From positions 48,369 to 112,368 of the forward strand of contig CAZPRK010000001.1 in the NCBI GenBank assembly GCA_964589485.1: a DNA stretch of 64,000 bases, read 5' to 3'. The notes under the pieces were generated by a model. That model was given only the letters and a program-made list of their open reading frames with translations. It was not told where the DNA came from and made no database searches. Source of the stretch: an uncultured Methanosarcinales archaeon (GTDB taxonomy: Archaea > Nanobdellota > Nanobdellia > Woesearchaeales > CAYSVS01). Below, in pieces: positions 1-31,395 of this stretch (its first letter is position 1; every line of letters starts with the position of its first letter). Made by a program: the position numbers and the translations under genes.

Positions 1-3000
1 TATCTAAGTCAGTAAATATTTTACTATAGAATGAATCACTAAAAGATAAACTATCTCCATCTATTCTTAATTTACTAATTTTATATCCTGGATCAGGTTG
101 AATAATTAAATCATAACTTAATCCTTCAACACCTTCATAGTAATTCCCAACTAAATTAGTATCTCCTATGATAAAAACTTTCCCACCTGTTCCGCTATTA
201 ACTTCAAATCCAGGTTTAGTACGTTTAAAAGTTGCAGAAATTTTCTTATTAGATTTAATATTATTAAAAGTATGTTTATAATTATTACCAATAGCAGTTG
301 GAAGTTTAACATCATCAGCTTTAACTTCACTTATTTCATAACCAACATTTGATTTTACATCAACAGATAAACTTGATTTTTCTTTTACTGAAGTTGAAGC
401 AGGAGTAATTGTTCCTCCTTTCCCTGCTGAAATTTCAACTGAAAAAGTTTCTAAATTTTCATGAACACATAAAGTTTTAGCTTTTTTATTAGTTCTTGAA
501 CCAATAAAAAGTTTTTTATCAGTTGTCAAATTATATTTAGATGAAAACTCTTTTTTAGAATAAGTAGAAAAATATTCATCTTTTAACCAAACTTCATCTA
601 AATCAGATATTTTGAACAACTCATTATTAGTATATTCTATGGTTTTTATTTTTTTAGCTTCATCCAAAGTAGGTAATCTCCAATCAGTTAATTCTCCAAT
701 ATTTAAATCATTACAATACGTTTCAAAATTTCTTACACACATATCAGTTCTTCCATTCACGTTTTTAAAATCACTACATTCTTTTTCTTTGTCTTGAGTT
801 GACCATTTTAAATTATTTTCAAAATCATTTAAAACATTCTGAGTATTTCCCATAGTATAACTATTTTGATTATTTCCTAAACTTAAATCATTTCCATCTC
901 TTACACAAACACTTATTGCATTTCCACCTGATTTTTTACTACTTGATATATCAACATTTACAGGGTAACGTTTATTATTTCTAAAATTTTTTTGTAACCC
1001 CTTAGTCCAAATTCTATCTTGTCCATTAATTCCAAATAAAGAATTATCTTTTACATATAAATCAAATATTTCTCTTACTTCCCCATCATTAGGGTTACGC
1101 CAATCAGTAAATCCACCTAAAGTTGAATCTCCGCAATAGTTTCGTTTAGTACAACCATAAAAATTTGAAGTAGAAGTTCCACATTTATTTTCTTCTCTTT
1201 TTGTAGTAAACATATTATTAGTATGTTCATTTACAACAATACTACCTTTATTATTTAATTTTACTTTTTGTAAATATAATTCAGTTGGAGTTATTGCTCC
1301 CTCTCTTACACATACTGTTTGTCCATATTCTCTAGAGAATCTATCATTAGTTACCCAATAATTTAAATTCCTCTTTAAATCAAATTTATAAGGATATTTG
1401 TAAGTTTTCCCACTCGTTGTTTTACTTTTAACTCCAGATGTCCAAACGTAGTCTCTATTTCTACGACTAAACTTTATATCTAATAAAGAATTATCTGTAT
1501 TTTCTATACCAATCAAAGTTTTAGCTTGATCTATCGTAGGAATTTTCCAATCTGTAAATCCGCCTAATTTCAAATAATAACAATAATTTACAAACCTTCT
1601 ATAACATCCAAATCCACCATATTTATATTTAAAATCGCATGTTTTTTCTTCTTTTGCTACAGTCCAAGTTAAATCATGTTTCTTATCTACTAAAACTCCA
1701 TCTTCTTTAGTCAATTTACTTAACCTTTCTCTCCTTGCTTTCTCTTCAGGAGTTAATCCACAATGTACAACTGCACCTAAGTTAGGGTATTGTGTAAGGG
1801 CATTACTTTTTGTCAATAAATCAGTAGTTCCTAATCTAAAAGGTGGATTATGAGAACTAGAATAACCATCAAAAGCAGTATATGCTTTAAAAACATCATT
1901 TCTACAAACATTTTGATTTAATTCATCAACATTCATTAAACTTCTTAATGGTACAAATTGCCATCCATCATTTAAATTTTTAATTTCCAATTTCCCACTA
2001 TCAACCACATATGCACAATTATTTGAAGTTTTAACAACAAATCCTTGCCCAGATTTTAACGAATTAAGAGTTTTCTTTTCATTATTTTCATATGTATAAA
2101 TAGAAATTGTACCACAATTTACAAATTTATTACTTACTTCAAAATTTTCACTTGTAGTTAATAAATGATACTTATCTTGTTTCAAATGTATTACATCCTG
2201 ATTTGATTTACATTTATAGTTTTGAGATTCATGTTTAACTATACTACCAACACTATCACAAGGTTTACCTGTTAACTCTTCACCCAATTTACAAAAAATA
2301 TTCAAACCATTACATGTATTTTGAGTACTAGCAGTAGTTACATCCCAAACATTTCTCCCAATATTTTCTCCAGGAACATAATCACTAACAACATTTACAT
2401 TATAAGATGCTGAAGCTTCTGCATCATCATCATCAGTAACAGTTAAAGTAACTTTATACGTCTTAGGTATTAAGTATTTATGTCTAAAGAAAGGTTCGCT
2501 ACGAATTCGATTATCTCCAAAATCCCATTTATATGATTTTATTTTCCCATCAACGTCATATGAAGAACTACCGTCATTAAATACATAAGTTCCTAATTTA
2601 ACAGTTATATCTCCTCCAACAATAGGAACAGGTTTTTTATTCAAAGGAGGTAAAATTCTTACTTTACTAGTCTTTATAGTTTTAGCTCTTTTATCATCTG
2701 TTACTTTTAAGGATACTTCAACTTCCTCAGGTAAGTTAAATGAATAATCTTCAACTTTAAACTGGTCTTCACCAGAATATTTAATTGATTGAACATCCCA
2801 ATCATAATTTTTAATAATACCATCTGGATCATTTGAATTACTTCCATCAATGTCAGTAAATTCTTCTGCATGAATTTCGTCTTCAAAAGTTATTTCTGCA
2901 ACTGGAGGTCTATTTATTATATTTAAAGTAGGCAAACGTTTAGTTTCACTTAATAATCCATCTTCATCTCTTACAGTAAGTTTAGGATAATAGTAATTAG

Positions 3001-6000
3001 CAGTAGGATATGAACGTTTAATTTTTGGATTTTCAGTTTCAACCAAAGGTCCATTACCAAAATTCCAAATATATGTTAAACTATCTCCATTTGGATCAAA
3101 AGATTCAGTAGCGTCAAATTCTATTTCTTCATTTGTTAAAGTGCTTACAGGTTTAACAATAACTTTTGCCTCAGGTGGTTCATTAAATATTTTTACATCA
3201 AATGGTTCATTAGATGTATCATATTTATCACGTACAGATAAAATAGCATGATAATCTTCATTTTTATATTCTGAATAAGAATGTTTAGCTACAGGGTCGC
3301 TTGAGAAATCTTTAATAGTATCATCTCCAAAATCCCATCTATATTCTAAGTCACTTTTATCTCCATCAGGGTCATAAGAACCAGAAGCATCAAAAGTAAT
3401 GTCAACATTTTTCTTATTAGTATTTACAAACTCTTTAAGTACTGCTACAGGTTTAATATTTTTCAAATCCAAAGATTTAGAATAAAAAGAAGTTGTATAC
3501 CTGTCATCTAATGTCAATTTAATTATATAATCTCCTTCAACACTAAAAGTCTTTTTCATAATATTAGTTGTAGAAGATTGTTTTACATCATTTATTTTCC
3601 ATTCATAAGTAATACTATCTCCATCAGAATCATAAGAACTAGAAGCATCAAAAATAATTTCATTATTTAATTTTTGTTCGCCATTAATTTCAAAATTAAC
3701 TGTAGGTTCTCTATTATTTATTCTTACAGTTTCAGTAAACGGTATTTCTGCATAATCATCAGCCACTGTTAAAGTTACTAAATAATCTTTGTTAAATTCA
3801 GGGAAAATATATGTATATTGTGAATCTTCAGAATAAGAAGTTTCTACATTACTTCCTATTTTCCATTTATAGTTTAAAGTATCTCCATCGCCATCAGAAG
3901 AACTAGAGGCATCAAAAGTAAGTTTATTCTTTTGATTAATATCAGGTGAATAAGTAAATTTAGGTATTGGGTTTTCATTTGTAAAAGATAAAGTTTGAGT
4001 TGTAGTTGAAGTAACATAACCATCATATACTGTTAATTTAACAGGATAACTACCAAATTCAGTAAAAGTATATTTATATTCTGAATTCTCAGAATAAGAA
4101 GTTTCTGCATTATTTCCAATTTTCCATTTATATTTTAAAGTATCCCCATCACTATCAGAAGAACTAGAAGCATCAAAAGTAATTTCCTGATTAAGTTTTT
4201 TATTACTTCTATCATGATTAAAGGAAGCAACAGGTTCTGTATTAGCTACATTTATTGTAAATGTTTTTGTTACTTCATCCCAATCATCTGAAACAGTTAA
4301 AACAACATTTTTTGATCCAGTGGTACTGAAACTATAACTTTTAATTGAATTACCTGGTTCATTATTCCAAGAGTAATATAAAGTATGACCATCAGAATCT
4401 GAAGACCTAGAAGCATCAAAAGTAATTTCTTCATCAGGCCTAACTGTAGTTGGAATATTATTAGTTTCTATAATTGGTGCAGTATTAGTAACAGTAACAA
4501 CAAAATTATCAGTATGCTCTCCACCTCTATCATCGGTTACAGTTAATGAAGCAGAATATTCACCTAAATCCAAATATGTATATGATACTTTTTTACCTTG
4601 CATATTTGGTTTATCTCCTTCTAACTCAGTATCGAACACCCACTTATATGTTTTAATTTCTCCATCTGAATCAGTTGAACTTCCGCCATCAAATTCAAAT
4701 GGTTTTCCAACAATTATATTTTTATCTCCGCCAGTATTTGCAACAGGCATAACATTAGGACGTAAAATTACTTGAACATTAAGTGTTTTAGAATTACTTC
4801 CTTCTCTATCATCAGTAACAGTTAATGTTACTGGGTACGTTCCAACTTCATTAAAAGTAAATGTAGGTTTTGATGTAGTTAAAATAACATCCCCAGGGAA
4901 ATTCCAATTATAAGCAACTATATTTCCATCATCATTATCGTAAGAACTTGTTCCATCAAATTCTATTGGGTTATTAATAAAAACTACTTTATCTCCAGTA
5001 ACTACAATTCCTTCACTAATAATATCACTTTGACTTACTAAGTCGCTTGATTTAATTGAAAATACAGCAGTAGGTAAAACATTAGGTTTTCTATCAACAG
5101 TAACTTTAATTATATCTGTCGAAGATAATCCTTCTTTATCAGTTACAGTTAATTCAATTTCTTTAACTCCCAATGTATTAAAAATATACTCAGGGTTAAC
5201 TCCTTCCATAATTTGTTCACCATTAAGTTTCCAAGTATAACTTAACTCATCATCTTCATCTGGATCTGTTGATGCTCCACCATTAAATTCAGCTTTATTT
5301 CCTAGATATACATTAAAATCTAAACCTGCTATTGCAGTTGGTGCCCTATTAGGATGGTTTACTATAACTTCATCTCCAAAACTAGACACTGCTCCTTTAC
5401 TATCAATTACATTCAAAAATACAGAATATATTCCAGCGTTATCATAAGCATGCACATTATTAACATCATTAGACTCAACATTATCTCCAAAGTTCCATGC
5501 ATGGATTAATTGATCACCATCAGTGTCTGTTGAAGTTGATGTAAATGTAACATCTTGTCCAATTAAAACTTCTCTTGGTTCAATTGTAAATTCTGATTTA
5601 GGAAATGCATTTATGCCTAACGATCTTTTTGATGGAACAAATTGTAAAGTACGTGTTCCCGTACCAACATCTGCAATTTCATCAAAAATTTCTTTAACAT
5701 CTGCATCATAATCTACTAACAATTTAATATGTTCCCATGCACCAGTGCTTGAATCTCTTGAATTATCTCCTTGATATTGATTATCCTCTGTTTTACACAA
5801 TACAGAATAAGATAACTCAGGAGAAATAGTTGGACAATATAATAAACATCTTGCATTATATTCATTTACATAACCCAAACAATCTTGTTTTTCATTTAAC
5901 CCAGGTTGAACAGAATGAAAAATAATTCTTTGATTTCCAATAACATCTTTTTCTAAAATAGGAGAAATTGTTAATTTAGTTAACTTATTCCTATCTTCAT

Positions 6001-9000
6001 CTTCAAAAACTAAAGTAGATTCAATTCTATATTGATCAGTATGTCCAATAATTTCAATAAACCCTATAAAGTTAGGATTTGAACCAGAAAGAAATATTTC
6101 ATTATTCCCGGCAAGTGAATCCCTCTCGCTTGCAATATTTGCTTCAACTGCTTCGTCTTCTAATTCATTACATAAATCCTCATTGCCTGAAGTAATGGCA
6201 TCAAATAAAACACAATCATTAGAACTAATTAATTTATTATCAGCTGAATCTATATGCTCTTGTGTACAAAATGAATCATCATTAATATATCCTGTACATT
6301 TATCTTTATAATCATCTAAAGTTAAATCTTTACATTGATCAACTTTATTATTTCTAATTGCTCTTAACAATAAACATTGATTTTGTTCTCCTTCTCCATC
6401 TAATGCCAAACAATCTTCTTTTTCTCCTAAATACATAGAAACGCATTCTTTAAATGGTTGATCTAATTCTTTTGGACAATATGCCTGAACATTAGCTTGT
6501 AACAATTCAGTAAAATCAATATTAGTATTTAGATTTTTACCAACGCCATTAAAAAGCTTAGCATAAGTAGAATCATATTCAAAATCAGTAAAATCATGTT
6601 GACATGTAACTTCTTTATTTGCAGTAACTTGAACATTTGTTGATAAAGTAGATAATTTAAATTCTCCAGGACTCACACTATATTCTAAAGACTCACCAAG
6701 ATTACATATTCCATCATTATCATCATCTTGTCCATCATTTGAAACATCTTTTTTACCTGCTACGCTACAATCGTCACAAGTATCTAAGTCAAAATCTCCG
6801 CAAACAAATTTATTTAATGGATCTATATCGTTTTCATCATCCACACCATCATTATCATCGTCATTATCAGGATAAATAGGATTAAAATAATCTAGAGGTT
6901 CATCACATAATCCATCTCCATCAGTATCCGGATGATATTCATGTTCAGAAGAAACTTTTCCATCTGTTATTGAAAATCCAATTCCTTTTCCACAATCATC
7001 ACAACCATCGTTATCAAAATCACCACAAATTGTATAATCATCGTCATTTTCATCAAAATAAGTATCATATTCACAATCAGTAATATTAGTTCCTCGCTTT
7101 CCTAATCCATCTCCATCTACATTTACACAACTTTTTCCGCTAGAATCACAGTTTCCATCTCCATCAAAATCAACTCCATCTTGATCAGGATCAAATCTTC
7201 CTAAAAAAGAACAATCATCACAACTATCTTCATCAGAATCTCCACAGAAATAAATATCTTTACTATAATCTACACCATCTTTATTTTTATCATTAATATC
7301 TAATACACCATCATTATCATCATCTTTATCAGTATTAGTAGCTGAAGGATAATCTTCAGGATCATCACATAACCCATCCCTATCAGTATCAGGCCAAGCT
7401 TCACTTCCACCATCTAATTCATTTGCCACTAAATTATTTTTATTTACAACTCTTATTACTCCAGCTCCACAATCATCACAACCATCATTATCTATATCAC
7501 TACACACTAAAGGATTTGTATCATCTTTATCTAAATCTTCATCTACTCCATCATTATCTCCATCATCATCACATACGTCACCTTTTAAAGTTACTCCAGG
7601 AACTCCATCTTCAGGTTCAAAGTCTTCATCAGAATTAGTTTGATCAAAATTCTTAGTACGCGGACAATTATCTGGACCTGCATTACATTTACATCCACCA
7701 TCTTTAATTAATATTTCTTGTTTACTTAAATCAGGACATTCTTTCAAATATCCATCATTTTCACCATCACAAATCCCATCTCTATCAGAGTCAGGCGTAC
7801 AAACATTTTCATCATTATTATCTCCAAAAATACATATTCTAGATGTAGTTTTTTTATGTTCCCCTAAATCTGTGATAGTTAATAAAGTTACATCTACATA
7901 TCCATCTTGATCACCATACACATTACTTGCAGTTAAAGAAAACTTTCTTCCTTTTTGTTCTCCCTTAACTTTTTCCTTTGTATCAAAATCCCAATAATAA
8001 CTTTGAATATTAGGATCTTCTTCAGCTTCAAAATAAATTTCAGCATCTTTAGCAAAAGAAACGCCATCAATTGGTGAAGTTATTACAGCTTTGGGTTCTT
8101 CTCCTGATTCCTCTATAGAATTTAATCTTAATTTAGCAGTCATATCTAACCAATTTTCAAAAGCATCCATATCATAACTAAAAACATTATAATTTAATTT
8201 TAAATTTTTTTCTTGCGGCAAACATAAAAAATCTACATTATCATTTTGTAAATCATATTTTAATACAGCATCACAAACATCAGCATTAAATCCAGAATAT
8301 TCAACTGTTAAAAATTCACCAATTTCATTTTCATTTTTTTGCACACTTTGTTCTAAAGCTGCAAAAACTTTATTTTTATCATTCCCAGCGGAATAAAATC
8401 TTACAAAATTTTTAATTTCGTTAACAAAACTAATATCTTCTTCACCAAAATTTATAGGTCTTACAAATAATCTAATAAAATTTACAGCAGCATCTGCTGG
8501 GCTTTTAAAAAAAGAAGTAAATAAAGTAGCTAAATTAGTTGATTGTAATTTAATTTCAGAATGTTGTGAAAAAATTAATGTTTTTAATTCTGCATCATAC
8601 CACACTTTTTTATTATTATTACATATTTTAAACCCATTATTTTTAACATTTGAACATAATTCTTCATCTAAATTTAGTTTAGTCAATATTTGACCATCTG
8701 TATCAATATCATCGTTTAAAGAAACCCCTGCAGCAACATCAAAAATTCCATTATCATTTTTATCATATTTTAAAACACAAACATTATTCATTGGTTTATC
8801 TACAGAATTATAATAATCTTCTAAACCAGGAACATCTTCTAAACTATTTACAACTTTATTTAATTCATCACAATGAATGGAGTATTTTGTTCCTGCTAAA
8901 TCAAGTAACTGGTTTGCTACAACTTTAGTTCTAGTAGTCCATTTTCCTTTTTCACAAAAATGATCTCCATCTAAATTATTTATTGATCCACTATTTTTAT

Positions 9001-11857
9001 CAGTATACCAACCATCATTTACACAAGAAATACCATTCCAACATTGAGTATCTTCTAAACAATATCCTCTTGGTTCATAATCTGTAGAATTATCCCACCT
9101 TTCTTTGTAATAAGTTGGTTTCCAAGATGCTTCAAAGTCAAGTGATCCCGTACTTCCAATTTCTTCTTTAACACAAACATATTGACTAAAATCGTTTGAT
9201 TCATTATTATACCCAAAATATTTACTAAACGCATCTGAATGTTTTCCATTAAAATTTAACGGAACACTTGAATAAGATTCATCATATTTAGCATAATCTA
9301 AAGGTTCAGAAATTCCTTCAACACAATAAACTCCATTCCAACAAGATTCTTTAGGACAACATCCTTTATCTCTTGATTGTGCTTCATCTAAATCAAAATA
9401 AATTTTATCTAAAGATGATAAATCATTCTTAGTATTTCTATCAATAGCTATAGCAGTTCCACTACTATCATCACTCCATTGACTTGCAGCATCAATTGTT
9501 TTATTTTTATCATCTCCATATGAACAAAAATAATCTCCTTTAACTGAACAAAAATCTTCTCCAGTATTTGGAGCACCACATTCTTTAAATTGTTTATCAG
9601 TATAGATTTTATTCAAAGGAAAATATTCAAATTTAATCAATTCATTAGGATTAGTAGTTTCAATTCCATTTTCAATTTCAATCGATTCTTTATATACAGA
9701 ACTAATTTTCATAGTACTTGCACCAGTAATTTGTATAGGTGTAACTTTTCCTTCAGAATCTAATGTAACATATTCTTCAGGAATAGAAACATAACAAGTT
9801 TCTCTTAAACAAATATCAGAAAATTCATCGCCATTTATTTTATACAACAAAGTATTATATCTAGCATTATCTAAAATAGGAACTCCATTTTGACATCCTG
9901 CATACGTTCCACCAGCAAAACTTTCTCCTTTTTCATTTCCACAACATGCATTTGTAATTTGATCTTCAGGTGAAGCAGTCCACATATACCCCGGAGTATC
10001 TAAACAAGCTGTTTTTCCAGAAACAGGATTATCCAAGTCATCAAACCATTTATAATCTGCACCACAATATGAATTTTTATTATTACTTAAAAACAATCTA
10101 TCTACAAAATATACATTTGCAAATTTTGAATTTTTCGATTTAAGTTTAACAGAATTTAATTCTTCTTCATTAAAATCATCATTTACTTTAAAAATGATCT
10201 CATTGATTGTGAATTCTTTATCGGTTGTTAATAATTCTTGTAAATTTCCATTTTCTCCAACAAAGTTAATTAAAGGAATTTTTATATGGTGCCAAGTCAT
10301 TGGTTGTTGGCCATTCTCTGAGAAACTTATTACATGATTAGGTACTTCAAAAGTTAATATTTCATTATCAATAGTTTTTCCTTTAAGTTCTAATCTTAAT
10401 TTAGAACTTCTTGCAAAAGCTAAATAAAATTCTAAATGTTCATACCCTCTCCAATCTTGAATATTAAAATTAACTTGAGAATCCGTGTGTCTTAATGGAG
10501 CAGTTCTATAATTATCTGAAAACATAAACACTCCTATTTGATTTCTTCCAGTTCCTGTTGGATCATAATTAAAATCAAATATTGTTGATAACAACTCACC
10601 TTGTCTTCTTGTTCTTTCACAAGGTAAATCTCCATTACAATCATTAACGCAATTAGCTAAATCATGCCCACAACATTCAATAAATTTACTCCCATTATTT
10701 TGTTTACTACACATAAACGAGTCTGATTTTTTATTTTCTACAGAATCTCCAACTTTAACATACTTATCAGCAACTATACCTAATTCTTGTAATTTTTTAT
10801 AATTTTGATCAATAGAAAGACCAAGTTCATCATTTTCAAAATTAATACTTTCTAAATCCAATAATTCAACTTGTTCAAATTCTTGTTTATATGGAATTAA
10901 AAAAATATCAGTACTTACTTTATTTCTATTTTCAATATTTAAAGTAGTTTCAGGTAAAAAAGTAAATCCTTCATTAACATATTCAATTACTGGTTCTTCA
11001 GTTGCAGAACTTGGTTGTTCAAAGTTAGATAATGTAGATGACACTGCAATTCCCGAAGGAACATTATCTCCATTAGATGTACATAAAAACCACTCTTCTC
11101 CATTAGAAATTATATCATTTTTAAAATTATTTACGCTATAAATATGATATTTGTTGTTAGTTGCACTACTCCATAACCATTCTTCACCATCATACCTTTC
11201 AGGATCTGGCAAAGAGTCAAAATTCCTATCAGGTAATAAACAAGCTTCATTTGAAGAAATTAAACCCAAATCACTTGCATTATCGTTCCCACAACAAATA
11301 TTATCTTTCCAAACATCAAGAATTGCACTTTCCATGTCACCAATGTCACCAGTTCCAGCTTTAGTTGGTTTTACTACTCCTGCACATTTTTGATTAAAAG
11401 TTTCAGCAGTATCTCCTGAAAATGAAGGTGGTAATGTACATTTATGTATTCCGAAATCATCCCCTTGAGCAGTACATCCAGGTAAATCAAACCTTGGATC
11501 ATGCCAAAAAGCATTATCCTTAGTACTAGGTAAAACCATTAAAGAATAATATTCATTTTCAGGAAAACATAAACGATGTAATAATCCTTTCCCATCACTT
11601 AAAAGCTTAGAATCATCAAAACAACTTACAGAACAAGTACTTTCTCCAACAGAAGCTGCACTCAAAATTCGACCAAATCTCGTTTCTTGAATCTCACTTC
11701 TTGGTTCAACATTTTCGGTACTTAATGTTCCGTTTCCATAAATCATACATTTTATACCATTTGCAGAAAAAGGATCTCCAAGTTCAGGTTCATCAGCAAA
11801 AACAAAGGTACTTAAAATAAGAAATAACACTAAATAAGTCCAAGATTTCCTCAACAC
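1..11857 (-). CDS. Giant secreted multidomain surface protein (adhesin-like), partial; more than 3,950 aa within the window, C-terminus lies beyond the window start. Not in the supplied ORF track.
   Basis: Reverse-strand translation opens with GTG at 11855..11857 and has an in-frame TAA just upstream at 11861..11863. Frame continuity was spot-checked at plus positions about 10294, 9049, 5497, 1573, 1138 and 718; all share the same frame with no stop encountered. The N-terminus MLRKSWTYLVLFLILSTFVFA-DEPEL is signal-peptide-like. Recognisable repeats: DxDxDGxxD Ca-binding, PKD (WNFGD, FDASSSSDSDGD..Y.W), DUF1566-like GGFTDWRxPT. Confidence 0.8.
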   Translation of the reverse strand, partial: MLRKSWTYLVLFLILSTFVFADEPELGDPFSANGIKCMIYGNGTLSTENVEPRSEIQETRFGRILSAASVGESTCSVSCFDDSKLLSDGKGLLHRLCFPENEYYSLMVLPSTKDNAFWHDPRFDLPGCTAQGDDFGIHKCTLPPSFSGDTAETFNQKCAGVVKPTKAGTGDIGDMESAILDVWKDNICCGNDNASDLGLISSNEACLLPDRNFDSLPDPERYDGEEWLWSSATNNKYHIYSVNNFKNDIISNGEEWFLCTSNGDNVPSGIAVSSTLSNFEQPSSATEEPVIEYVNEGFTFLPETTLNIENRNKVSTDIFLIPYKQEFEQVELLDLESINFENDELGLSIDQNYKKLQELGIVADKYVKVGDSVENKKSDSFMCSKQNNGSKFIECCGHDLANCVNDCNGDLPCERTRRQGELLSTIFDFNYDPTGTGRNQIGVFMFSDNYRTAPLRHTDSQVNFNIQDWRGYEHLEFYLAFARSSKLRLELKGKTIDNEILTFEVPNHVISFSENGQQPMTWHHIKIPLINFVGENGNLQELLTTDKEFTINEIIFKVNDDFNEEELNSVKLKSKNSKFANVYFVDRLFLSNNKNSYCGADYKWFDDLDNPVSGKTACLDTPGYMWTASPEDQITNACCGNEKGESFAGGTYAGCQNGVPILDNARYNTLLYKINGDEFSDICLRETCYVSIPEEYVTLDSEGKVTPIQITGASTMKISSVYKESIEIENGIETTNPNELIKFEYFPLNKIYTDKQFKECGAPNTGEDFCSVKGDYFCSYGDDKNKTIDAASQWSDDSSGTAIAIDRNTKNDLSSLDKIYFDLDEAQSRDKGCCPKESCWNGVYCVEGISEPLDYAKYDESYSSVPLNFNGKHSDAFSKYFGYNNESNDFSQYVCVKEEIGSTGSLDFEASWKPTYYKERWDNSTDYEPRGYCLEDTQCWNGISCVNDGWYTDKNSGSINNLDGDHFCEKGKWTTRTKVVANQLLDLAGTKYSIHCDELNKVVNSLEDVPGLEDYYNSVDKPMNNVCVLKYDKNDNGIFDVAAGVSLNDDIDTDGQILTKLNLDEELCSNVKNNGFKICNNNKKVWYDAELKTLIFSQHSEIKLQSTNLATLFTSFFKSPADAAVNFIRLFVRPINFGEEDISFVNEIKNFVRFYSAGNDKNKVFAALEQSVQKNENEIGEFLTVEYSGFNADVCDAVLKYDLQNDNVDFLCLPQEKNLKLNYNVFSYDMDAFENWLDMTAKLRLNSIEESGEEPKAVITSPIDGVSFAKDAEIYFEAEEDPNIQSYYWDFDTKEKVKGEQKGRKFSLTASNVYGDQDGYVDVTLLTITDLGEHKKTTSRICIFGDNNDENVCTPDSDRDGICDGENDGYLKECPDLSKQEILIKDGGCKCNAGPDNCPRTKNFDQTNSDEDFEPEDGVPGVTLKGDVCDDDGDNDGVDEDLDKDDTNPLVCSDIDNDGCDDCGAGVIRVVNKNNLVANELDGGSEAWPDTDRDGLCDDPEDYPSATNTDKDDDNDGVLDINDKNKDGVDYSKDIYFCGDSDEDSCDDCSFLGRFDPDQDGVDFDGDGNCDSSGKSCVNVDGDGLGKRGTNITDCEYDTYFDENDDDYTICGDFDNDGCDDCGKGIGFSITDGKVSSEHEYHPDTDGDGLCDEPLDYFNPIYPDNDDDNDGVDDENDIDPLNKFVCGDFDLDTCDDCSVAGKKDVSNDGQDDDNDGICNLGESLEYSVSPGEFKLSTLSTNVQVTANKEVTCQHDFTDFEYDSTYAKLFNGVGKNLNTNIDFTELLQANVQAYCPKELDQPFKECVSMYLGEKEDCLALDGEGEQNQCLLLRAIRNNKVDQCKDLTLDDYKDKCTGYINDDSFCTQEHIDSADNKLISSNDCVLFDAITSGNEDLCNELEDEAVEANIASERDSLAGNNEIFLSGSNPNFIGFIEIIGHTDQYRIESTLVFEDEDRNKLTKLTISPILEKDVIGNQRIIFHSVQPGLNEKQDCLGYVNEYNARCLLYCPTISPELSYSVLCKTEDNQYQGDNSRDSSTGAWEHIKLLVDYDADVKEIFDEIADVGTGTRTLQFVPSKRSLGINAFPKSEFTIEPREVLIGQDVTFTSTSTDTDGDQLIHAWNFGDNVESNDVNNVHAYDNAGIYSVFLNVIDSKGAVSSFGDEVIVNHPNRAPTAIAGLDFNVYLGNKAEFNGGASTDPDEDDELSYTWKLNGEQIMEGVNPEYIFNTLGVKEIELTVTDKEGLSSTDIIKVTVDRKPNVLPTAVFSIKSSDLVSQSDIISEGIVVTGDKVVFINNPIEFDGTSSYDNDDGNIVAYNWNFPGDVILTTSKPTFTFNEVGTYPVTLTVTDDREGSNSKTLNVQVILRPNVMPVANTGGDKNIIVGKPFEFDGGSSTDSDGEIKTYKWVFDTELEGDKPNMQGKKVSYTYLDLGEYSASLTVTDDRGGEHTDNFVVTVTNTAPIIETNNIPTTVRPDEEITFDASRSSDSDGHTLYYSWNNEPGNSIKSYSFSTTGSKNVVLTVSDDWDEVTKTFTINVANTEPVASFNHDRSNKKLNQEITFDASSSSDSDGDTLKYKWKIGNNAETSYSENSEYKYTFTEFGSYPVKLTVYDGYVTSTTTQTLSFTNENPIPKFTYSPDINQKNKLTFDASSSSDGDGDTLNYKWKIGSNVETSYSEDSQYTYIFPEFNKDYLVTLTVADDYAEIPFTETVRINNREPTVNFEINGEQKLNNEIIFDASSSYDSDGDSITYEWKINDVKQSSTTNIMKKTFSVEGDYIIKLTLDDRYTTSFYSKSLDLKNIKPVAVLKEFVNTNKKNVDITFDASGSYDPDGDKSDLEYRWDFGDDTIKDFSSDPVAKHSYSEYKNEDYHAILSVRDKYDTSNEPFDVKIFNEPPEAKVIVKPVSTLTNEEIEFDATESFDPNGDSLTYIWNFGNGPLVETENPKIKRSYPTANYYYPKLTVRDEDGLLSETKRLPTLNIINRPPVAEITFEDEIHAEEFTDIDGSNSNDPDGIIKNYDWDVQSIKYSGEDQFKVEDYSFNLPEEVEVSLKVTDDKRAKTIKTSKVRILPPLNKKPVPIVGGDITVKLGTYVFNDGSSSYDVDGKIKSYKWDFGDNRIRSEPFFRHKYLIPKTYKVTLTVTDDDDAEASASYNVNVVSDYVPGENIGRNVWDVTTASTQNTCNGLNIFCKLGEELTGKPCDSVGSIVKHESQNYKCKSNQDVIHLKQDKYHLLTTSENFEVSNKFVNCGTISIYTYENNEKKTLNSLKSGQGFVVKTSNNCAYVVDSGKLEIKNLNDGWQFVPLRSLMNVDELNQNVCRNDVFKAYTAFDGYSSSHNPPFRLGTTDLLTKSNALTQYPNLGAVVHCGLTPEEKARRERLSKLTKEDGVLVDKKHDLTWTVAKEEKTCDFKYKYGGFGCYRRFVNYCYYLKLGGFTDWKIPTIDQAKTLIGIENTDNSLLDIKFSRRNRDYVWTSGVKSKTTSGKTYKYPYKFDLKRNLNYWVTNDRFSREYGQTVCVREGAITPTELYLQKVKLNNKGSIVVNEHTNNMFTTKREENKCGTSTSNFYGCTKRNYCGDSTLGGFTDWRNPNDGEVREIFDLYVKDNSLFGINGQDRIWTKGLQKNFRNNKRYPVNVDISSSKKSGGNAISVCVRDGNDLSLGNNQNSYTMGNTQNVLNDFENNLKWSTQDKEKECSDFKNVNGRTDMCVRNFETYCNDLNIGELTDWRLPTLDEAKKIKTIEYTNNELFKISDLDEVWLKDEYFSTYSKKEFSSKYNLTTDKKLFIGSRTNKKAKTLCVHENLETFSVEISAGKGGTITPASTSVKEKSSLSVDVKSNVGYEISEVKADDVKLPTAIGNNYKHTFNNIKSNKKISATFKRTKPGFEVNSGTGGKVFIIGDTNLVGNYYEGVEGLSYDLIIQPDPGYKISKLRIDGDSLSFSDSFYSKIFTDLD
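640..1760 (-). repeat. Three DUF1566/Lcl-C-terminal-like modules inside the giant CDS
   Basis: Three copies of Cys-flanked modules with motif GGFTDW(K/R)xPT: LKLGGFTDWKIPTIDQ (about 1550), STLGGFTDWRNPNDGE (about 1100), IGELTDWRLPTLDE (about 690). Each was confirmed by direct reverse-complement translation. Confidence 0.55.
2400..5600 (-). repeat. Array of about 12 PKD domains inside the giant CDS
   Basis: Recurrent units of about 85-90 aa carrying FDAS.S.D.DGD.L.Y.W and WNFGD/WDFGD motifs. Several adjacent units are near-identical (TFDASSSSDSDGDTLKYKWKIG / TFDASSSSDGDGDTLNYKWKIG). Confidence 0.65.
6680..7810 (-). repeat. Thrombospondin-type-3-like Ca-binding Asp-rich repeats inside the giant CDS
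   Basis: Repeated DxDxDGxxDxxD with paired Cys, e.g. DTDRDGLCDDPED, DNDDDNDGVDDEND, CGDFDNDGCDDCG. The antisense strand gives a spurious His-rich ORF at 7423..7638. Confidence 0.55.
11795..11857 (-). other. Predicted N-terminal signal peptide of the giant protein
   Basis: Basic N-terminus (LRK), hydrophobic core YLVLFLILSTFVF, then A-DEPE. Confidence 0.5.
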
Positions 11858-11967
11858 CCTTTATAACCTCTTTTATATGATATATTATATTTTAATAATT
11901 AATTTATATATAAACCTTGTGATTTAAAATATAATTATTTATATAGAAATTATTTATCCTTTATCGA

Positions 11968-12654
11968 ATGAAAAGTATGTTTATAGAATTAATCAAAAAA
12001 CTGTTAAATAAAGATATTATTTCAAAAGAAGATTTAAGAGCATTAACTGAAACTAAAGATTTAACTGAAGAATTTGTAAAATGGTACAAAGATTTAGGTT
12101 TTGAAACTCTTTTTCAAAGACAAATGACATTAACCAAATGTCCATTTACAAATGAAGAAATAGAAATTGCAAAAAATAACCAAGAATTTATAATTGCAAT
12201 CCCAAAAAATATTACAGCTAAACAATTTTCTGAATTATTTAGAATTGAATCAGTTCACAATTTAGATGATAAATTAATTCAATTTACTAAAGAAACAGAA
12301 GATACTTGGGTTAAAGTTTCAAGTAAAGACATTCCTGATTTACTTAATCATTCGTTTACCCAAATTAGAAATAAATTTGAAGAAGAAAATAAAGTTGGAA
12401 TGAATCTTCCAAGATATTTAGTTTTTGTTGCTTGGTTTTATAAAAAAAACAATACATACCCTGACATGAATTATTGGAATTACTTAATCGGAAGTAAATA
12501 TGATAAATCAGGAGTAATGATAGCTGGTTTTGACGATAAAAACAAAAAACTAAATTTACATGGTTGGAAAAAAAATCATCCAAATGAAACCTGGCTTGGT
12601 GCAAGATATGCTAAACATCCAAGTAGAATTGAAGTAAGAAAAGAAACTATCTAA
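11968..12654 (+). CDS. Hypothetical protein, 228 aa
   Basis: Complete ORF diverging from the giant gene; no motif recognised. Confidence 0.45.
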   Translation: MKSMFIELIKKLLNKDIISKEDLRALTETKDLTEEFVKWYKDLGFETLFQRQMTLTKCPFTNEEIEIAKNNQEFIIAIPKNITAKQFSELFRIESVHNLDDKLIQFTKETEDTWVKVSSKDIPDLLNHSFTQIRNKFEEENKVGMNLPRYLVFVAWFYKKNNTYPDMNYWNYLIGSKYDKSGVMIAGFDDKNKKLNLHGWKKNHPNETWLGARYAKHPSRIEVRKETI

Positions 12655-13714
12655 GATCTTTAAAATAAACATTTTTACCATCTAATTTAATTTGTTCATG
12701 TGAAATTTTCACTTTCAAATCCATTTTTTTAAAATAATTATTTAACTCAAATTCATTATTTTTTTCATTTAAAAATAAATATAATTTATCTTCATAATTT
12801 ACATCTTTTTTTATTACAAATAAAAAAGGACAATTTACAATATTTCCTACATTATTAATTAATTCTTGTTTACTATACAAATCTCCAAATAATTTAATTA
12901 AATCTCCTTTCCGTTTAATAAAAGTAAAATATCCTTTTTCTAACTTAACATAATCTCCTGTAATGTATCTAACCAAATAAGTTGATTGATTAAATGGATC
13001 TGTAATAACTAAGTCACCTTCTCCTTCAAAAGATGAATTACCATCAATATCTACAACTTCATAAATTAAATTTGAAACTAATTTAAACTTATTAGAACCT
13101 GAAATTTCTTCAATTCCTATGGCTCCGAATTCACTCATCCCGAAACCATTATACACTTTAACATTAAATGTTTTTTCTAATTTTTCACGAAACCAAGAAT
13201 GCAAATATTCCCCGCCAACTATAACTTTTTCCAAAGAGTTTAATTTTAATTTATTCAAAATATTAAATGCTGTTTCAGTTGTTAAAATTGCCATTTTAGG
13301 ATTTAAACCCTTAATAAAAGCTAAATCTAACCAAGTTTTTTCAAAATCATTTCCTAATGGCAATAAAGTACAATTAAAAAATTTAGATGCATATTCAACA
13401 TCTATTCCGGCTTGCCCAAAAGAATAACTGAAATGATTCAAAAAAACACCAGATAACCCAAATATTTTAAAAATTTCAACATACCGTTTAATTATAGCTT
13501 CTTTTCCTTTTTCATCAACATAAACTAAAGATGAAGTTCCAGTTGTCCCACTTGACATTTGAATATATTTTGGAGCTAATAAACAAGTTTCAAATGACCA
13601 TTGTCTTAGATCTTGTTTTGTCATTAAAGGAAGATTTTTAAGTTCATTTAGACTAAATAATTCTTTCTTACCATACAATTTTAAAATATTATTTAATGAA
13701 TTTAAATTATCCAT
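12647..13714 (-). CDS. Adenylate-forming enzyme, phenylacetate-CoA ligase (PaaK) / coenzyme F390 synthetase-like
   Basis: MSSGTTG phosphate-binding motif (S/TSGTTG) and PaaK-like size. Confidence 0.55.
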   Translation of the reverse strand: MDNLNSLNNILKLYGKKELFSLNELKNLPLMTKQDLRQWSFETCLLAPKYIQMSSGTTGTSSLVYVDEKGKEAIIKRYVEIFKIFGLSGVFLNHFSYSFGQAGIDVEYASKFFNCTLLPLGNDFEKTWLDLAFIKGLNPKMAILTTETAFNILNKLKLNSLEKVIVGGEYLHSWFREKLEKTFNVKVYNGFGMSEFGAIGIEEISGSNKFKLVSNLIYEVVDIDGNSSFEGEGDLVITDPFNQSTYLVRYITGDYVKLEKGYFTFIKRKGDLIKLFGDLYSKQELINNVGNIVNCPFLFVIKKDVNYEDKLYLFLNEKNNEFELNNYFKKMDLKVKISHEQIKLDGKNVYFKDLR

Positions 13715-13750
13715 AAACTAAGAAAAAGTTCATATTTATAAAAATATAAC

Positions 13751-14671
13751 TTAAATATTTAATAAATCTTGACCAATAAAATCTTCTTGAAATGTTCTTG
13801 GAACCGCCTTAGCAGTATTACAAGTTTGTTTTAATCCTTCATTTTCCACAACTGAACATACTGATTTTGTTTTCATAGTACTAGCAAAAAATGCATACGA
13901 TAAATCATCTACCCATAGTTTATACATAGATTCATAATTATCTCCACTAAAAACCCTACACATATAATGTGCACCACCATCAAGCTGATCACATAATTTT
14001 TCATTATTTAACAAATAATTAACCCATGCTGCATAAGATTTACAACCTACGTCTTTACAAACACTCAAATCTCTTGAAGTTATAGCTTTACATAAATCAG
14101 TTGTACATTCTGAACTTAACTCAAAACAAGTTTGTTTTATTTCAGAAGATTCTATATTATCACAATTTAAAGAAACTAAATTATTTACATCTTGTTTAAT
14201 TTCTTCAGCTTCTTCACATTCATGTTCATTATGGTGTAAATCATTAGTTTTTAAACAAGAAATATATTCATTACTTCCTTCTTTACACTCTTCACTATAC
14301 AAATCTTCATGAGAAACTTCTACAGGAGTAACTGAATCATGTAAATAAAAGTCATCACCTAAATATTCTCTAGAAACATAGTATTCTTTTATAATGTTTC
14401 CACAATTTTCTGATGTAGAAAAAACTTTTGCCCTTAAATCAAATTCAGAATTTAACAAAACAGTTCTTTGAATTTCTTCTTTAGAATCATGAAGAATTTT
14501 TAATCCTACTGCTGCATCAGTAGTCCCACTTTCACTAAGATATAATTCTACTGCCTTTTTCTCTTTAGCATCAGCATAATTTAATTCAATAGATGATGAA
14601 GGTAAGTAAATTCCAATAAAAACTATAATTAACAGTAACCCTAAAAGAATGTAAATATTTTTTTGTTTCAC
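13751..14671 (-). CDS. Membrane-anchored, Cys-rich (about 16 Cys) acidic extracellular protein
   Basis: N-terminal hydrophobic anchor IYILLGLLLIIVFIGIY followed by an acidic, Cys-rich domain. Confidence 0.5.
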   Translation of the reverse strand: MKQKNIYILLGLLLIIVFIGIYLPSSSIELNYADAKEKKAVELYLSESGTTDAAVGLKILHDSKEEIQRTVLLNSEFDLRAKVFSTSENCGNIIKEYYVSREYLGDDFYLHDSVTPVEVSHEDLYSEECKEGSNEYISCLKTNDLHHNEHECEEAEEIKQDVNNLVSLNCDNIESSEIKQTCFELSSECTTDLCKAITSRDLSVCKDVGCKSYAAWVNYLLNNEKLCDQLDGGAHYMCRVFSGDNYESMYKLWVDDLSYAFFASTMKTKSVCSVVENEGLKQTCNTAKAVPRTFQEDFIGQDLLNI

Positions 14672-14709
14672 TTAATAATTTAATACTTTAAAACTTATAA
14701 AAGTTTCGA

Positions 14710-15663
14710 TTAGATAAAAGAAAATAATATTATCAAAACCATAGAAAATCCAAAATAAGGAGCAAGAGGTAATTCTTGAGATATTTTTAACTTTTTTATG
14801 CCCCATTCTTTTATTTCTTTTATTTCGTTATAATCTAAACCTTCACTTCCTTCAACATATAAAAGTTCATATCCAGAAGCTTGTTCTTTATTATTAAAAA
14901 AAAATATTTTATTATTCTTTCTAGCAATAATATCATGAACCATCATTCCTGGCTTTAAATCAATACTATTAACTTCATAAAAATCAGAAGTTAATAAAGT
15001 TTTAAAATAATCAAACAATAAATAAAATATGAAAGGATAAATTACCCCTCTAAATAAATAAGCACTATAATCATTCACAATTATCAAATTTATTATCACT
15101 AAAATAAAAGTAAATTTACGATAAGATAAAAATTTTCTCAAAAAAGAATTTGTAAAAAAAATGAGAGATAAAAAAAGACTAAATGCTAAATACATATAAT
15201 TATTTAACTCAAAAAAATAATTAAACCCAAAAAATATTAAAAAAATAAGCTGAAAAAAACTAAAATAAAGTAACAATATGGGTAATGAAAAAGTATTTTT
15301 TAATTCAGATATTTTATTATTATAAATTAATTTAATAAGAACTAATAAAGACGGAATTATTAGCCCTATTAATATAACTAATAACATAGGAAAGTTATTA
15401 TTAACTAAAAAAGAAGGAATTCCTAATGCATAAACCATCAATAATTTTGAATCCCCTGCTGGAATTAACCCAGACATCCATAAAAGTATTGCAAAAACAA
15501 ATGTAAAAATAAAATTAAATAAATATTGTGGTGTATATTCTGCTAAAATTAAAAATAATATAGCAAAAATAACCAAATGAACATTTTTTACTTTATGTTC
15601 CTTAATATCAGTATAAGAAGTTAATATAATAAACAACAATAAAGTTAAAATATTTAATATCAT
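14710..15663 (-). CDS. A24-family aspartic prepilin/preflagellin peptidase-like polytopic membrane protein with C-terminal soluble extension
   Basis: Polytopic membrane protein. SYTDIKEHKVKN fits the first catalytic Asp motif (D...R/H..PN) and IPAGDSKLL fits the second (GxGDxKL) of PibD/FlaK/PilD peptidases. Confidence 0.55.
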   Translation of the reverse strand: MILNILTLLLFIILTSYTDIKEHKVKNVHLVIFAILFLILAEYTPQYLFNFIFTFVFAILLWMSGLIPAGDSKLLMVYALGIPSFLVNNNFPMLLVILIGLIIPSLLVLIKLIYNNKISELKNTFSLPILLLYFSFFQLIFLIFFGFNYFFELNNYMYLAFSLFLSLIFFTNSFLRKFLSYRKFTFILVIINLIIVNDYSAYLFRGVIYPFIFYLLFDYFKTLLTSDFYEVNSIDLKPGMMVHDIIARKNNKIFFFNNKEQASGYELLYVEGSEGLDYNEIKEIKEWGIKKLKISQELPLAPYFGFSMVLIILFSFI

Positions 15664-16015: not shown

Positions 16016-16981
16016 ATGAATAAACCTTTAGATTTAACTCTCGAAATCAACAATAAATGTAATTTAAAGTGTAAACATTGTCAAATTTGGAAAGAACGTC
16101 CATTTTATGAATTAAATATCAACGAAATTAAAGATACAATAACTAAACTAAAAAATAAATATTCAGAAATAACTAATATTTCATTAACAGGTGGAGAATG
16201 TTTCTTAAATAAAGATATTGAAAAAATCATAGTATTATTAGCTAAATTACAAACTAACAATATCATTAAAGAATTTGATTTAGTTTCGAATGGATTTTTT
16301 TATGATAAAATTAAAGACATTTTCATCAGAAATAAAGAATTAATAACCAAATCTAAATTTTCAATAGCATTTAGTGTTGACGGTTTAAAAGAAAATCATA
16401 ATAAACAAAGAGGAAATCCAAAAAGTTTTCAAGAATTAGAAAAAAGTATTGATTTTTTTATAACTAATTTCCCTAACATTAACACTTCGGTTAAATTTAC
16501 TGCAACTAACATAAATTATAAAGATACATATAATCTATTTCTTTGGTGTAAAAATAAAAACATTAATTTTGCACCAAAAATAGTAGAATTTGGAACTAAT
16601 AATTATTACCATAGAAATGGAACTTCTGAGTTAAATGAAAACACTCAAGAAATGATAGAATATATGAAAAAAGTTTTTCAAAATTTATTAACTGAACCAT
16701 TAGTAGAAAAAAAAGGGATTAAACTTCATTTAGATTACTTAAATACGAATAAATTTTGTAAAAATAGTTGTTATACTCCTTGGCAAAGTTTATTTATTGA
16801 TTCTAGAGGTAAAATTTTTCCTTGTATTTATTATGACCCTATTACTAACATCCATGAAAATAACTGGGAATTTAAAATTAACAATCAAGAACATAAACAA
16901 TTAATTGCAATGGGTCTTAAGAAAACATGTAAAGGATGTCTTGCATATCATGGGTTCTTAAAACCATATAATTTAAAATGA
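16016..16981 (+). CDS. Radical SAM enzyme with C-terminal SPASM-like Cys cluster
   Basis: CNLKCKHCQ (CxxxCxxC); C-terminal cysteines CKNSCYTPW...PCIYY...CKGC. Confidence 0.75.
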   Translation: MNKPLDLTLEINNKCNLKCKHCQIWKERPFYELNINEIKDTITKLKNKYSEITNISLTGGECFLNKDIEKIIVLLAKLQTNNIIKEFDLVSNGFFYDKIKDIFIRNKELITKSKFSIAFSVDGLKENHNKQRGNPKSFQELEKSIDFFITNFPNINTSVKFTATNINYKDTYNLFLWCKNKNINFAPKIVEFGTNNYYHRNGTSELNENTQEMIEYMKKVFQNLLTEPLVEKKGIKLHLDYLNTNKFCKNSCYTPWQSLFIDSRGKIFPCIYYDPITNIHENNWEFKINNQEHKQLIAMGLKKTCKGCLAYHGFLKPYNLK

Positions 16982-17652
16982 TAATTATACGAAATGACGA
17001 TGTTGGATTAGAAAATAAAACTTTTATTAAATTTAATAATTGGATTAATGAATTAAACATTCCATGTACTTACGCAATCATACCATATTATATCAATAAT
17101 GAATTAAAAAATAAAATAAGTAAAAATATAGAAATAGTTATGCATGGATATAAACACAAAAATTATAGTAACAATGAAATTAAATACGAATTTGGAGATT
17201 CAAGAAATTATGAACAACAATTACATGACTTAACTGAAGCAAATAACATTTTTGAACATCATTTTCCGAATCAAGAAAAAATATTCATTCCTCCTTGGCA
17301 TAAAATAAATCAAGATACAATTAAAGCGTTAAATAAACTAAATTATAATAAAATTAGTCTATCTTATTTAGAAAAAAAACAAAAAACTCCTTTTCAAATT
17401 AGTTGGATTCATATTATTTTTCATCCAAAATTAACTAAAAAGAAAGACCTTCCTGAATTAATAAAAAAAATTATAGCTTTATGTCAAAATCAATGGTATG
17501 TGGGGATTAATATGCATCATCATTTTATGACTAATAGGGAAGAAGAAGAAACGACTAAATTATTCTTAGAATTAATTAAACAAATTTCAATAAAATATAA
17601 CATAAAATTAGGAAAAGTTACTGATTCATACAATAATCACGAACAGAATTAA
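16978..17652 (+). CDS. CE4 (NodB)-like polysaccharide deacetylase family protein, divergent
   Basis: RNDDVG (motif 1, DD), HGYKH (motif 2, HxxxH), IPPW (motif-3-like). Confidence 0.4.
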   Translation: MIIIRNDDVGLENKTFIKFNNWINELNIPCTYAIIPYYINNELKNKISKNIEIVMHGYKHKNYSNNEIKYEFGDSRNYEQQLHDLTEANNIFEHHFPNQEKIFIPPWHKINQDTIKALNKLNYNKISLSYLEKKQKTPFQISWIHIIFHPKLTKKKDLPELIKKIIALCQNQWYVGINMHHHFMTNREEEETTKLFLELIKQISIKYNIKLGKVTDSYNNHEQN

Positions 17653-19814: not shown

Positions 19815-19815
19815 T

Positions 19816-21201: not shown

Positions 21202-21400
21202 TTTCTCTCACCTTAGCCAAAACATAATTAGCAAATTCAAACGGTAAAATTGAATCATCTTTAAATTCTATAATAACAAAAGAATCTTCTTCAACTAAAC
21301 TTACTTCATATTCTTTTTTAAACTCAAGCATAGTTTCCAAAATATATTTTTTTGGATAAAATTCTAAAGAAAGTTTAATTTTGTGAGACATCTTTCTCAA
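21194..21400 (-). CDS. Small hypothetical protein, 68 aa
   Basis: ORF overlapping the start of the downstream radical SAM gene by 8 nt (translational-coupling arrangement). Confidence 0.3.
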   Translation of the reverse strand: MRKMSHKIKLSLEFYPKKYILETMLEFKKEYEVSLVEEDSFVIIEFKDDSILPFEFANYVLAKVRENE

Positions 21401-21758
21401 CTTCTTCTAATAATTTATTTATTTCTTGTTCTTCGGCATCTTCAACTAATTTTGGTGAAGCTGAAAATAAAGCTCTTTGTAAAACTGCATTTATTACATC
21501 TTTATTTTGTTCAAATTGATTAAAATAATTAGTTATTGAAATTAAGTCATTAAAAAATCGTTGAGCAGTTTGATCTAGATTTACGTCTTTTTTTGGTTTA
21601 ATTTTCACAATAACTTCATCATTTAAATTTCCATCTAATAAAACATAAAAATCATCCAAATAAACATAAGTAGTAGCATATATATTTTTCAAAGAATACA
21701 TTTTTGGATTTAATGTGATTATTAAAGCATTATTTTCAATTTTATAGTCTGTTGTCAT
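21375..21758 (-). CDS. Hypothetical protein, 127 aa
   Basis: ORF in operon position upstream of the 68-aa ORF and the radical SAM gene. Confidence 0.4.
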   Translation of the reverse strand: MTTDYKIENNALIITLNPKMYSLKNIYATTYVYLDDFYVLLDGNLNDEVIVKIKPKKDVNLDQTAQRFFNDLISITNYFNQFEQNKDVINAVLQRALFSASPKLVEDAEEQEINKLLEEVEKDVSQN

Positions 21759-27981: not shown

Positions 27982-27983
27982 AA

Positions 27984-31382: not shown

Positions 31383-31395
31383 TTTCTAAATAAAG

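Follow-up and report, generated by a model that had tools for sequence, protein, structure and literature searches.

The 64,000-nucleotide (nt) stretch of contig CAZPRK010000001.1 considered here (hereafter the window) carries, on the minus strand at its left end, most of a single intact gene for a protein of 4,211 amino acids (aa). The domain content of this giant suggests that it is probably a secreted, Ca2+-stiffened, glycan-binding attachment fibre. Judged from its sequence, the giant is an ordinary member of a family defined by a Cys-rich N-terminal core of ~1,250 aa, extended by ~2,950 aa of lineage-specific adhesin-type modules.

Translation of the reverse complement from 11857 to 2 yields 3,952 codons with no stop, and the remaining five frames across 1..11857 each contain between 147 and 792 stops, with no open stretch longer than 128 codons. 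The window has a G+C content of 26.4%, a composition at which a random frame is calculated to meet a stop about every 12 codons, so that chance is excluded as the origin of an open frame of this length. The gene starts with GTG at 11855-11857 and the codons leading into it read TTA-TAA-AGG-GTG, the in-frame TAA occupying 11861-11863 and the start following two codons later. The gene is missing from the list of open reading frames (ORFs) compiled for the window solely because it runs off the window end. Extending the sequence past the window start reached the C-terminus (...NSHLGTWVLCG) and provided 259 further codons and a stop, the latter 778 nt beyond position 1. The original prediction, drawn from the letters of the window alone, had described a partial product of more than 3,950 aa read continuously from this GTG with a TAA just upstream; the six-frame stop scan bore this out, and no in-frame stop was found in 1..11857.

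The complete gene is present on ENA scaffold SUTE22-1_SAMN10231923_METAG-scaffold_26 (305,963 bp), where its 4,211-aa product (P0003) is identical to the window translation over residues 2-3952, residue 1 being encoded by GTG and written V here and M in P0003. A version from JGI (P0002) is called from a later start and counts 4,202 aa; its contig shows no mismatch to the window over 11,857 nt and also encodes the complete downstream part. A Logan contig is likewise identical in DNA over aa 1-3197, and identical copies of the gene thus occur in three independent assemblies. Furthermore, the internal DNA repeats have diverged (the best pair shares 88% over 131 nt), which makes repeat collapse or mis-joining unlikely. 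The long ORF is one real, intact gene and not a product of assembly. The mature protein has a mass of ~470 kDa and an isoelectric point (pI) of 4.5.

The N-terminus shows, by inspection, the layout of a Sec-type signal peptide, MLRKS-WTYLVLFLILSTFVFA/DEP (alternatively split as MLRKS, WTYLVLFLILSTFVF and A/DEP; the slash marks the putative cleavage site), and a hydropathy scan identifies aa 1-21 as the sole hydrophobic segment of the whole protein. A class-III (pilin-type) signal, considered on account of a nearby prepilin peptidase gene, was rejected, as a Sec signal cut by signal peptidase I (VFA/DE) fits better. Profile searches with Pfam and NCBIfam, complemented by self-built hidden Markov models (HMMs), then resolve the anatomy summarized in Table 1. 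The PKD_4 profile (PF18911) matches 12 stretches with 467 bits against a cut-off of 27, and the PKD profile (PF00801) reaches 247.5 bits; the self-built HMM counts 12 tandem copies and one isolated copy. The 12-domain array contains neither Cys nor an N-x-S/T sequon, shows pairwise identities of 12-52% among its copies, and has a single type of sequence match in the PDB, to a collagenase PKD domain. Lcl_C (PF07603, also known as DUF1566) scores 81.1 bits against a gathering cut-off of 34.9 in three stretches. No other part of the protein is basic: the region with these modules has a pI of 9.0, compared with 4.1-4.5 for the core and for the Asp-rich, mid and PKD regions. Flg_new_2 (PF18998) scores 32.4 and 30.4 bits against a cut-off of 23.6 at aa ~3806-3880. 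The GW...GFWV..C module that occurs as a partial copy between the PKD array and the Lcl_C modules also forms the C-terminal end of the protein.

Taken together, these searches recover the predicted signal peptide, the Cys-rich N-terminal modules (42 Cys in aa 22-1260, many of them invariant across relatives), the series of about 12 PKD domains and the three DUF1566/Lcl-like modules. The C-terminal beta-sandwich repeats of the original prediction hold in part, one Flg_new_2 copy exceeding the curated threshold and the second being recognizable by eye only. None of the PDB sequence searches made with the Lcl region, mid region or family profile returned a significant match, and no catalytic or ATPase domain was found anywhere in the giant by the Pfam and NCBIfam profiles. 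Two sets of matches were discarded. The match to the NCBIfam model for a myxosortase-dependent M36 metallopeptidase stays at 219 bits, far short of the cut-off of 1,500, and is confined to the PKD-like part of that model, and the Pfam matches to Sde0182_C, Big_9 and PKD_3 fall inside the PKD array and were counted as the same domains.

Table 1. Features of the giant gene and its product. Coordinates are window positions, residues are numbered on the 4,211-aa protein, and a slash in a sequence marks the putative cleavage site.
Feature	Residues (aa)	Window position	Strand	Basis and remarks
Part of the 4,211-codon gene inside the window	codons 1-3952	2..11857	-	No stops; full-length P0003 matches
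Shine-Dalgarno-like GAGGT		11866..11870	-	8 nt upstream of GTG; read directly from the sequence
Putative Sec-type signal peptide, MLRKSWTYLVLFLILSTFVFA/DEP	1-21	11795..11857	-	Hydropathy scan; N-termini of relatives are of the same type
Cys-rich core	22-1259	8081..11794	-	42 Cys; family match, no Pfam
Predicted beta-jelly-roll of carbohydrate-binding-module type	roughly 465-600	10058..10465	-	Bounds estimated from the high-confidence beta region of the model
Core module M4	~910-1245	8123..9130	-	Most widespread module of the family; end of the protein in most relatives
Isolated PKD-like domain	1260-1341	7835..8080	-	Self-built HMM, E 7e-17
Asp/Cys-rich region	1342-1735	6653..7834	-	25% Asp, 26 Cys, 10 DxDxDG motifs, three ~105-aa modules
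Breakpoint	1387/1388	7685..7697	-	Contigs from two other samples diverge here
Cys-rich region	1736-2083	5609..6652	-	14 Cys; no family or PDB match
Twelve tandem PKD domains	2084-3154	2396..5608	-	PKD_4, E 2e-143; self-built HMM
Intervening region	3155-3387	1697..2395	-	Partial copy of the GW...GFWV..C module at aa ~3220-3327
Three Lcl_C (DUF1566) modules	3388-3482, 3540-3627, 3675-3765	563..1696	-	Pfam and self-built HMM
InlB-type B-repeat (Flg_new_2), then a probable second copy	3803-3880 (first copy)	2..451	-	Second copy by eye only
Cys-rich knot and two GW modules	3966-4211	outside the window	-	C-terminal cassette

The relationship of the core to other proteins was established by an exhaustive HMMER search against 1.84 billion representative proteins. 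The search returned 304 relatives at E<=1e-3 and 129 at E<=1e-10, the best of them (P0006) at 2.5e-113. All relatives that carry organism names belong to Woesearchaeota or Nanoarchaeota, and their products are named hypothetical protein, MopE-related protein or thrombospondin type 3 repeat-containing protein. Coverage by these relatives divides the core into four modules, M1 (aa ~180-265), M2 (~375-665), M3 (~765-900) and M4, the last being present in about 140 of the 150 relatives listed. An alignment of 15 long relatives is collinear and contains 36 invariant columns, most of them Cys or Trp, as well as CCGDD-type motifs that recur. The relatives have ordinary N-terminal signal peptides and no C-terminal anchors, and many of them end in the M4 motif W.DLT.K.R, whose counterpart in the giant is WLDMTAKLR (aa 1236-1244). 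The giant thus combines the collinear homology over ~1,250 aa, the conserved Cys, the signal peptide and the M4 end motif that characterize this family. The lengths of the relatives range from about 900 to 2,800 aa, with <=100 residues after M4 in 114 of 136. Among the 150 relatives listed, only two show a match beyond residue 1260 and none contains the exact extension of the giant. Since most relatives end after the core, the remaining ~2,950 aa appear to constitute a lineage-specific extension.

No Pfam, NCBIfam or PDB sequence match was obtained for the core (aa 22-1259), and a scan of GTDB genomes with it found no close relative. AlphaFold2 predictions based on the family alignments gave usable models, and in fold comparisons the best structural matches of one predicted core domain are carbohydrate-binding modules (CBMs) of cellulosomal and other glycanases. 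The CBM class is defined by a jelly-roll fold (as in CBM11 and CBM30), an aromatic ligand cleft and CAZy family membership by sequence; the evidence from the model is at the level of the fold and indicates a lectin-type domain, which may bind sugars. A weak PLAT match (E 0.004) was superseded by this result. M4 adopts an alpha/beta fold in the model.

The Asp-rich region that follows the core had been predicted to consist of TSP3-like Ca-binding repeats, and this description holds at the level of the motif. The Pfam TSP_3 profile (PF02412) gave no match at E<=1 on a 501-aa piece of the giant nor at E<=10 on pieces of 85-175 aa, and the region has no PDB sequence match. The DxDxDG motifs argue for the description, as do TSP_3 matches in relatives. 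Two relatives whose post-core part aligns to residues 1262-1703 score 22.9 and 21.2 bits, just under the cut-off of 25, at the position equivalent to GPDNCPRTKNFDQTNSD of the giant, and a third, which NCBI names a TSP3-repeat protein, scores 28.6 bits. The MopE motif (PF11617) is present in 4 of 15 relatives and in the 720-aa product encoded downstream. The motif is thus fairly called TSP3-like, and we regard the region as TSP3/MopE-like by motif only.

The gene appears to belong to an island of surface-protein genes, the part of which outside the window was taken from sequences L087 and L088. Its TGA stop overlaps, as ATGA, the ATG of a gene for a 720-aa secreted protein with a Pfam MopE match (L088, 16606-18768), and the two are predicted to be co-transcribed and translationally coupled. 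The last ~246 residues of this neighbour, whose gene is interrupted by a run of N in the ENA scaffold, match residues 3972-4210 of the giant with 37% identity (E 5e-46), suggesting that the shared C-terminal cassette is a common docking or sorting module. Further downstream lie a gene for a 1,029-aa protein whose signal, KRA/QITAFILLG, is of the archaeal pilin type or class III (L087, 24507-27596), and a gene for a second giant of 4,269 aa (L087, from 27683 to 32636), which is Cys-rich and contains CarboxypepD_reg. On the other side, 3 kb upstream of the giant, a prepilin peptidase gene (Peptidase_A24) occupies window positions 14710-15663. Beside the island, window positions 16016-21758 hold two radical-SAM genes (one with SPASM), an HxsD-family gene, a DegT-type aminotransferase gene and a polysaccharide deacetylase gene, a cluster that looks like a peptide- or sugar-modification cassette.

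Sequon counts set the proteins of this island apart. The mature giant contains 8 N-x-S/T sequons where 52.6 ± 6.3 are expected (z = -7.1), a ~6-fold depletion, compared to 116 observed and 125 expected in the other 45 ORFs of the window. The three neighbouring secreted proteins at L087 22640-32636 show the same tendency, namely the 720-aa neighbour (0 observed, 9.6 expected), the 1,029-aa protein (3 and 9.2) and the second giant in its N-terminal 1,651 aa (2 and 16.5). Most control motifs in the giant occur about as often as expected: the reverse motif S/T-x-N was counted 57 times (52 expected), N-x-A/G 44 times (37), D-x-S/T 52 times (61) and Q-x-S/T 11 times (14). The directly adjacent pair N-S/T is moderately under-represented, with 34 occurrences where 54 are expected (z = -3.0). 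In relatives from the family, the quartiles of the observed-to-expected sequon ratio are 0.37, 0.71 and 1.1, so that depletion depends on the lineage. From these counts, N-glycosylation appears to be selected against in this organism's secreted proteins.

The locus may also exist in a short form. Contigs from samples SAMN10231922 and SAMN11854482, which stem from two studies, are identical to window positions 7685-15472 and both switch to unrelated sequence at the same point, just before a TSP3-like motif. The resulting product of 1,423 aa ends where the Asp-rich region and the extension begin. The flank of the short form (L003 1-240, L004 1-96) contains a small ORF beginning MKKILLIDAYNMIHRARFGW, and the contigs end shortly after. 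Since the junction was reproduced independently, we favour a real short allele over a recurrent chimera. Two metagenome DNA scans, one with the flank and one with the junction, found nothing of the far side of this allele.

On this basis we propose that the giant would be exported through Sec by its N-terminal signal peptide, which has the sequence features of its class and is presumably cleaved. The disulfide-rich core, which is common to hundreds of Woesearchaeal secreted proteins, would contribute the CBM-type jelly-roll as a putative sugar-binding domain. The Asp-rich region would, going by its DxDxDG motifs, bind Ca2+ and thereby stiffen the chain. The 13 PKD domains would form an extended stalk, the length of which we estimate at some tens of nanometres, as immunoglobulin (Ig)-like domains usually span ~4 nm each. 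The three basic Lcl_C modules would attach to anionic glycans of a partner cell or surface, and the C-terminal cassette of ~240 aa may fix both the giant and its overlapping neighbour to a common structure, probably the envelope of the producing cell.

Several observations weigh against such an attachment fibre. No membrane anchor, PGF-CTERM or other sorting signal was found in the giant, either by hydropathy or at its C-terminus (...NSHLGTWVLCG), so that its retention at the surface is assumed only. The TSP_3 and MopE (PF11617) profiles are both silent on the giant in piecewise searches (pieces of 85-501 aa). No function is assigned to ~2,600 aa, comprising the core minus its jelly-roll, aa 1736-2083, aa 3155-3387 and the C-terminal cassette, and the predicted fold of M4 has no informative relative among solved structures. 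Lastly, given the purine pathway described below, the organism may be less host-dependent than a typical member of the DPANN archaea.

Of the other explanations, the one that fares best regards the giant as a structural part of the envelope of its own cell or of an extracellular matrix (a fibre associated with the S-layer, a sheath or a biofilm matrix) with no part in host recognition. It would then join cells of its own kind or give the envelope its shape. Such a role would be in keeping with the location of the gene in an island for several very large secreted proteins with a common C-terminal cassette, and with the lack of an anchor in the giant itself. Cys-rich, Ca-binding modules are typical of matrix proteins, as in thrombospondin-type repeats, and PKD arrays occur in archaeal surface-layer proteins. 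However, a short allele that dispenses with two thirds of the protein, together with relatives that range from about 900 to 2,800 aa, amounts to a variability that fits a rapidly changing recognition protein better, and the lectin-type modules (CBM-like and Lcl_C) suggest the binding of a ligand. We therefore consider a purely structural role possible, yet clearly less probable than attachment.

A substrate-capture protein, tethering the cell or secreted enzymes to particulate polysaccharide in the manner of CBM- and PKD-rich scaffolds, seems less probable still. The resemblance of the core domain to CBMs of cellulosomal and other glycanases would suit it, as would the PKD arrays and the matches in the PKD zone to Sde0182_C, a profile of a cellulose-binding protein. 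However, no glycoside hydrolase, lyase, dockerin or cohesin was found in the giant or in the neighbours examined, and the Sde0182_C and M36-family matches cover PKD-like segments only, the NCBIfam model remaining at 219 of the 1500 bits required. Finally, contigs from two other samples that break into unrelated sequence at aa 1387, and the scaffold N-gap just downstream of the giant gene, could be taken as signs of a chimeric assembly through repeats or of a decaying pseudogene that is still open, but we judge such an artefact very improbable given a frame of 3,952 open codons, beyond chance at 26% G+C, a JGI contig (4,202-aa call) identical over 11,857 nt and a Logan contig matching aa 1-3197, repeats too diverged to mislead an assembler, and detectable domains that are all intact and above threshold.

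The genes that neighbour the giant encode an intein-containing MCM, Orc1/Cdc6, PolD DP1 and DP2, and purine-synthesis enzymes. PolD DP2 shows 55-62% identity to full-length matches in metagenome-assembled genomes labelled Woesearchaeota, Nanoarchaeota or Nanobdellota, and 69% to one partial match. The replication genes and the DP2 identities agree with the archaeal origin that had been proposed for the protein, and they indicate that the host is a Woesearchaeota-like DPANN archaeon without a close species representative in GTDB. The MCM helicase gene (window 27984-31382, minus strand) carries an intein with a LAGLIDADG homing-endonuclease domain, the Intein_splicing match spanning aa 336-787. 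Window positions 41268-61134 encode a near-complete de novo purine pathway, which comprises PurD, PurB, PurA, GuaA, PurH, PurF, PurL and PurM, two PurP-like DUF1246/DUF1297 genes and a 754-aa ORF (54185-56449) in which GATase_5 (PurQ-like), SAICAR synthetase and AIR carboxylase domains are fused. DPANN genomes are usually thought to lack nucleotide synthesis, which makes the presence of this pathway notable. No tRNA or Rfam features were found in the window.

Woesearchaeota are abundant, uncultured and presumed to live attached to other cells, and we know of no attachment molecule that has been shown for them. A further giant adhesin-like protein in a DPANN genome would be expected by specialists and is no surprise in itself. 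The value of this one would lie in its being a concrete and intact attachment candidate with separable modules (the CBM-like core, the Ca-binding region, the PKD stalk, the Lcl-type lectins and the cassette), and in a core that defines a large and apparently lineage-specific family of 304 relatives for which Pfam, NCBIfam and PDB sequence searches gave no match. Usable leads are offered by the clean division of the giant into modules, by what appear to be a long and a short allele, and by the scarcity of sequons. A bolder synthesis, which we advance as speculation and consider unlikely to hold in full, would make the core, with its CBM-like domain and M4, a lineage-specific device of Woesearchaeota for recognizing hosts or surfaces, encoded at a modular, length-polymorphic locus within a secreted island selected against N-glycosylation. 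The 1,423-aa allele would then stop where the extension begins, and the 4,211-aa allele would add the PKD stalk, the three lectin modules of Lcl type and a cassette for docking to the envelope. If true, the way in which uncultured DPANN archaea select partners and keep hold of them would become directly testable, as would a surface strategy without glycans, unusual among archaea.

The known proteins close to the giant include the 2,000-2,060-aa relatives P0006, P0008 and P0012, the last being Woesearchaeota protein MBI4441335.1 (thrombospondin type 3 repeat-containing protein). All three share the homologous, collinear core of ~1,250 aa and a signal peptide, and in P0006 and P0008 the sequence continues after the core, as in the giant, with the PKD and Asp-rich regions. 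None of the three has the 12-PKD array, Lcl_C modules, B-repeats or C-terminal cassette, and they reach or approach the TSP_3 threshold, which the giant does not. A parallel is also provided by bacterial giant repeat adhesins of the RTX, Bap and LapA type, which are very long, acidic and Ca2+-binding and combine tandem Ig-like extenders with lectin-type modules. The giant shares this overall logic, but it is an archaeal Sec substrate built from other domain families, with no RTX nonapeptides, type I signal or LapA-type retention module.

Giant attachment-type proteins are already known in DPANN archaea, and the protein described here is a further example rather than a new kind of system. The giant surface proteins of cultivated nanohaloarchaea, among them SVXNc_0300 (9,409 aa), BNXNv_0298 and the SPEARE proteins, have been proposed to bind the host (PMC10266531). 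Like the giant, these proteins belong to DPANN archaea, extend over thousands of residues, are acidic (pI ~4), have a Sec signal and long Ig-like arrays, are strain-specific and variable between relatives, and have a proposed role in host-cell contact. In contrast to the giant, the nanohaloarchaeal proteins are described as membrane-anchored, contain a VirB4/TraG-like ATPase domain and have a neighbouring gene for a VirB4-type ATPase (PMC10266531). No ATPase domain, no transmembrane segment beyond the signal peptide and no VirB4-type neighbour was found for the giant, and the absence of a VirB4-like ATPase and of a membrane anchor places it outside the SPEARE-type family. With DPANN giants carrying Ig-like or PKD domains already documented (PMC10266531), the original description of this domain combination as unusual in an archaeal protein was overstated, and what stands is the absence of the exact extension from the relatives listed. 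Partly undescribed are the Woesearchaeal core family, the M4 fold and the C-terminal cassette.

The Lcl_C modules invite comparison with the Lcl adhesin of Legionella, whose C-terminal DUF1566 domain is C-type-lectin-like, binds sulphated glycosaminoglycans through a positively charged surface and trimerises (PMC11162425). The giant resembles Lcl in the modules themselves, in their basic charge and in the design of a lectin-like head on a long stalk. However, in Lcl, a trimer of ~40 kDa, the stalk is a collagen triple helix and each chain has one C-terminal Lcl_C module (PMC11162425), whereas the giant carries three tandem internal modules in a single chain with a PKD stalk, and profile searches of it gave no collagen family match. 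Thus, lacking a collagen stalk, the giant is not an orthologue of Lcl; by analogy with the Legionella trimer, its three tandem Lcl_C copies could act as an intramolecular pseudo-trimer.

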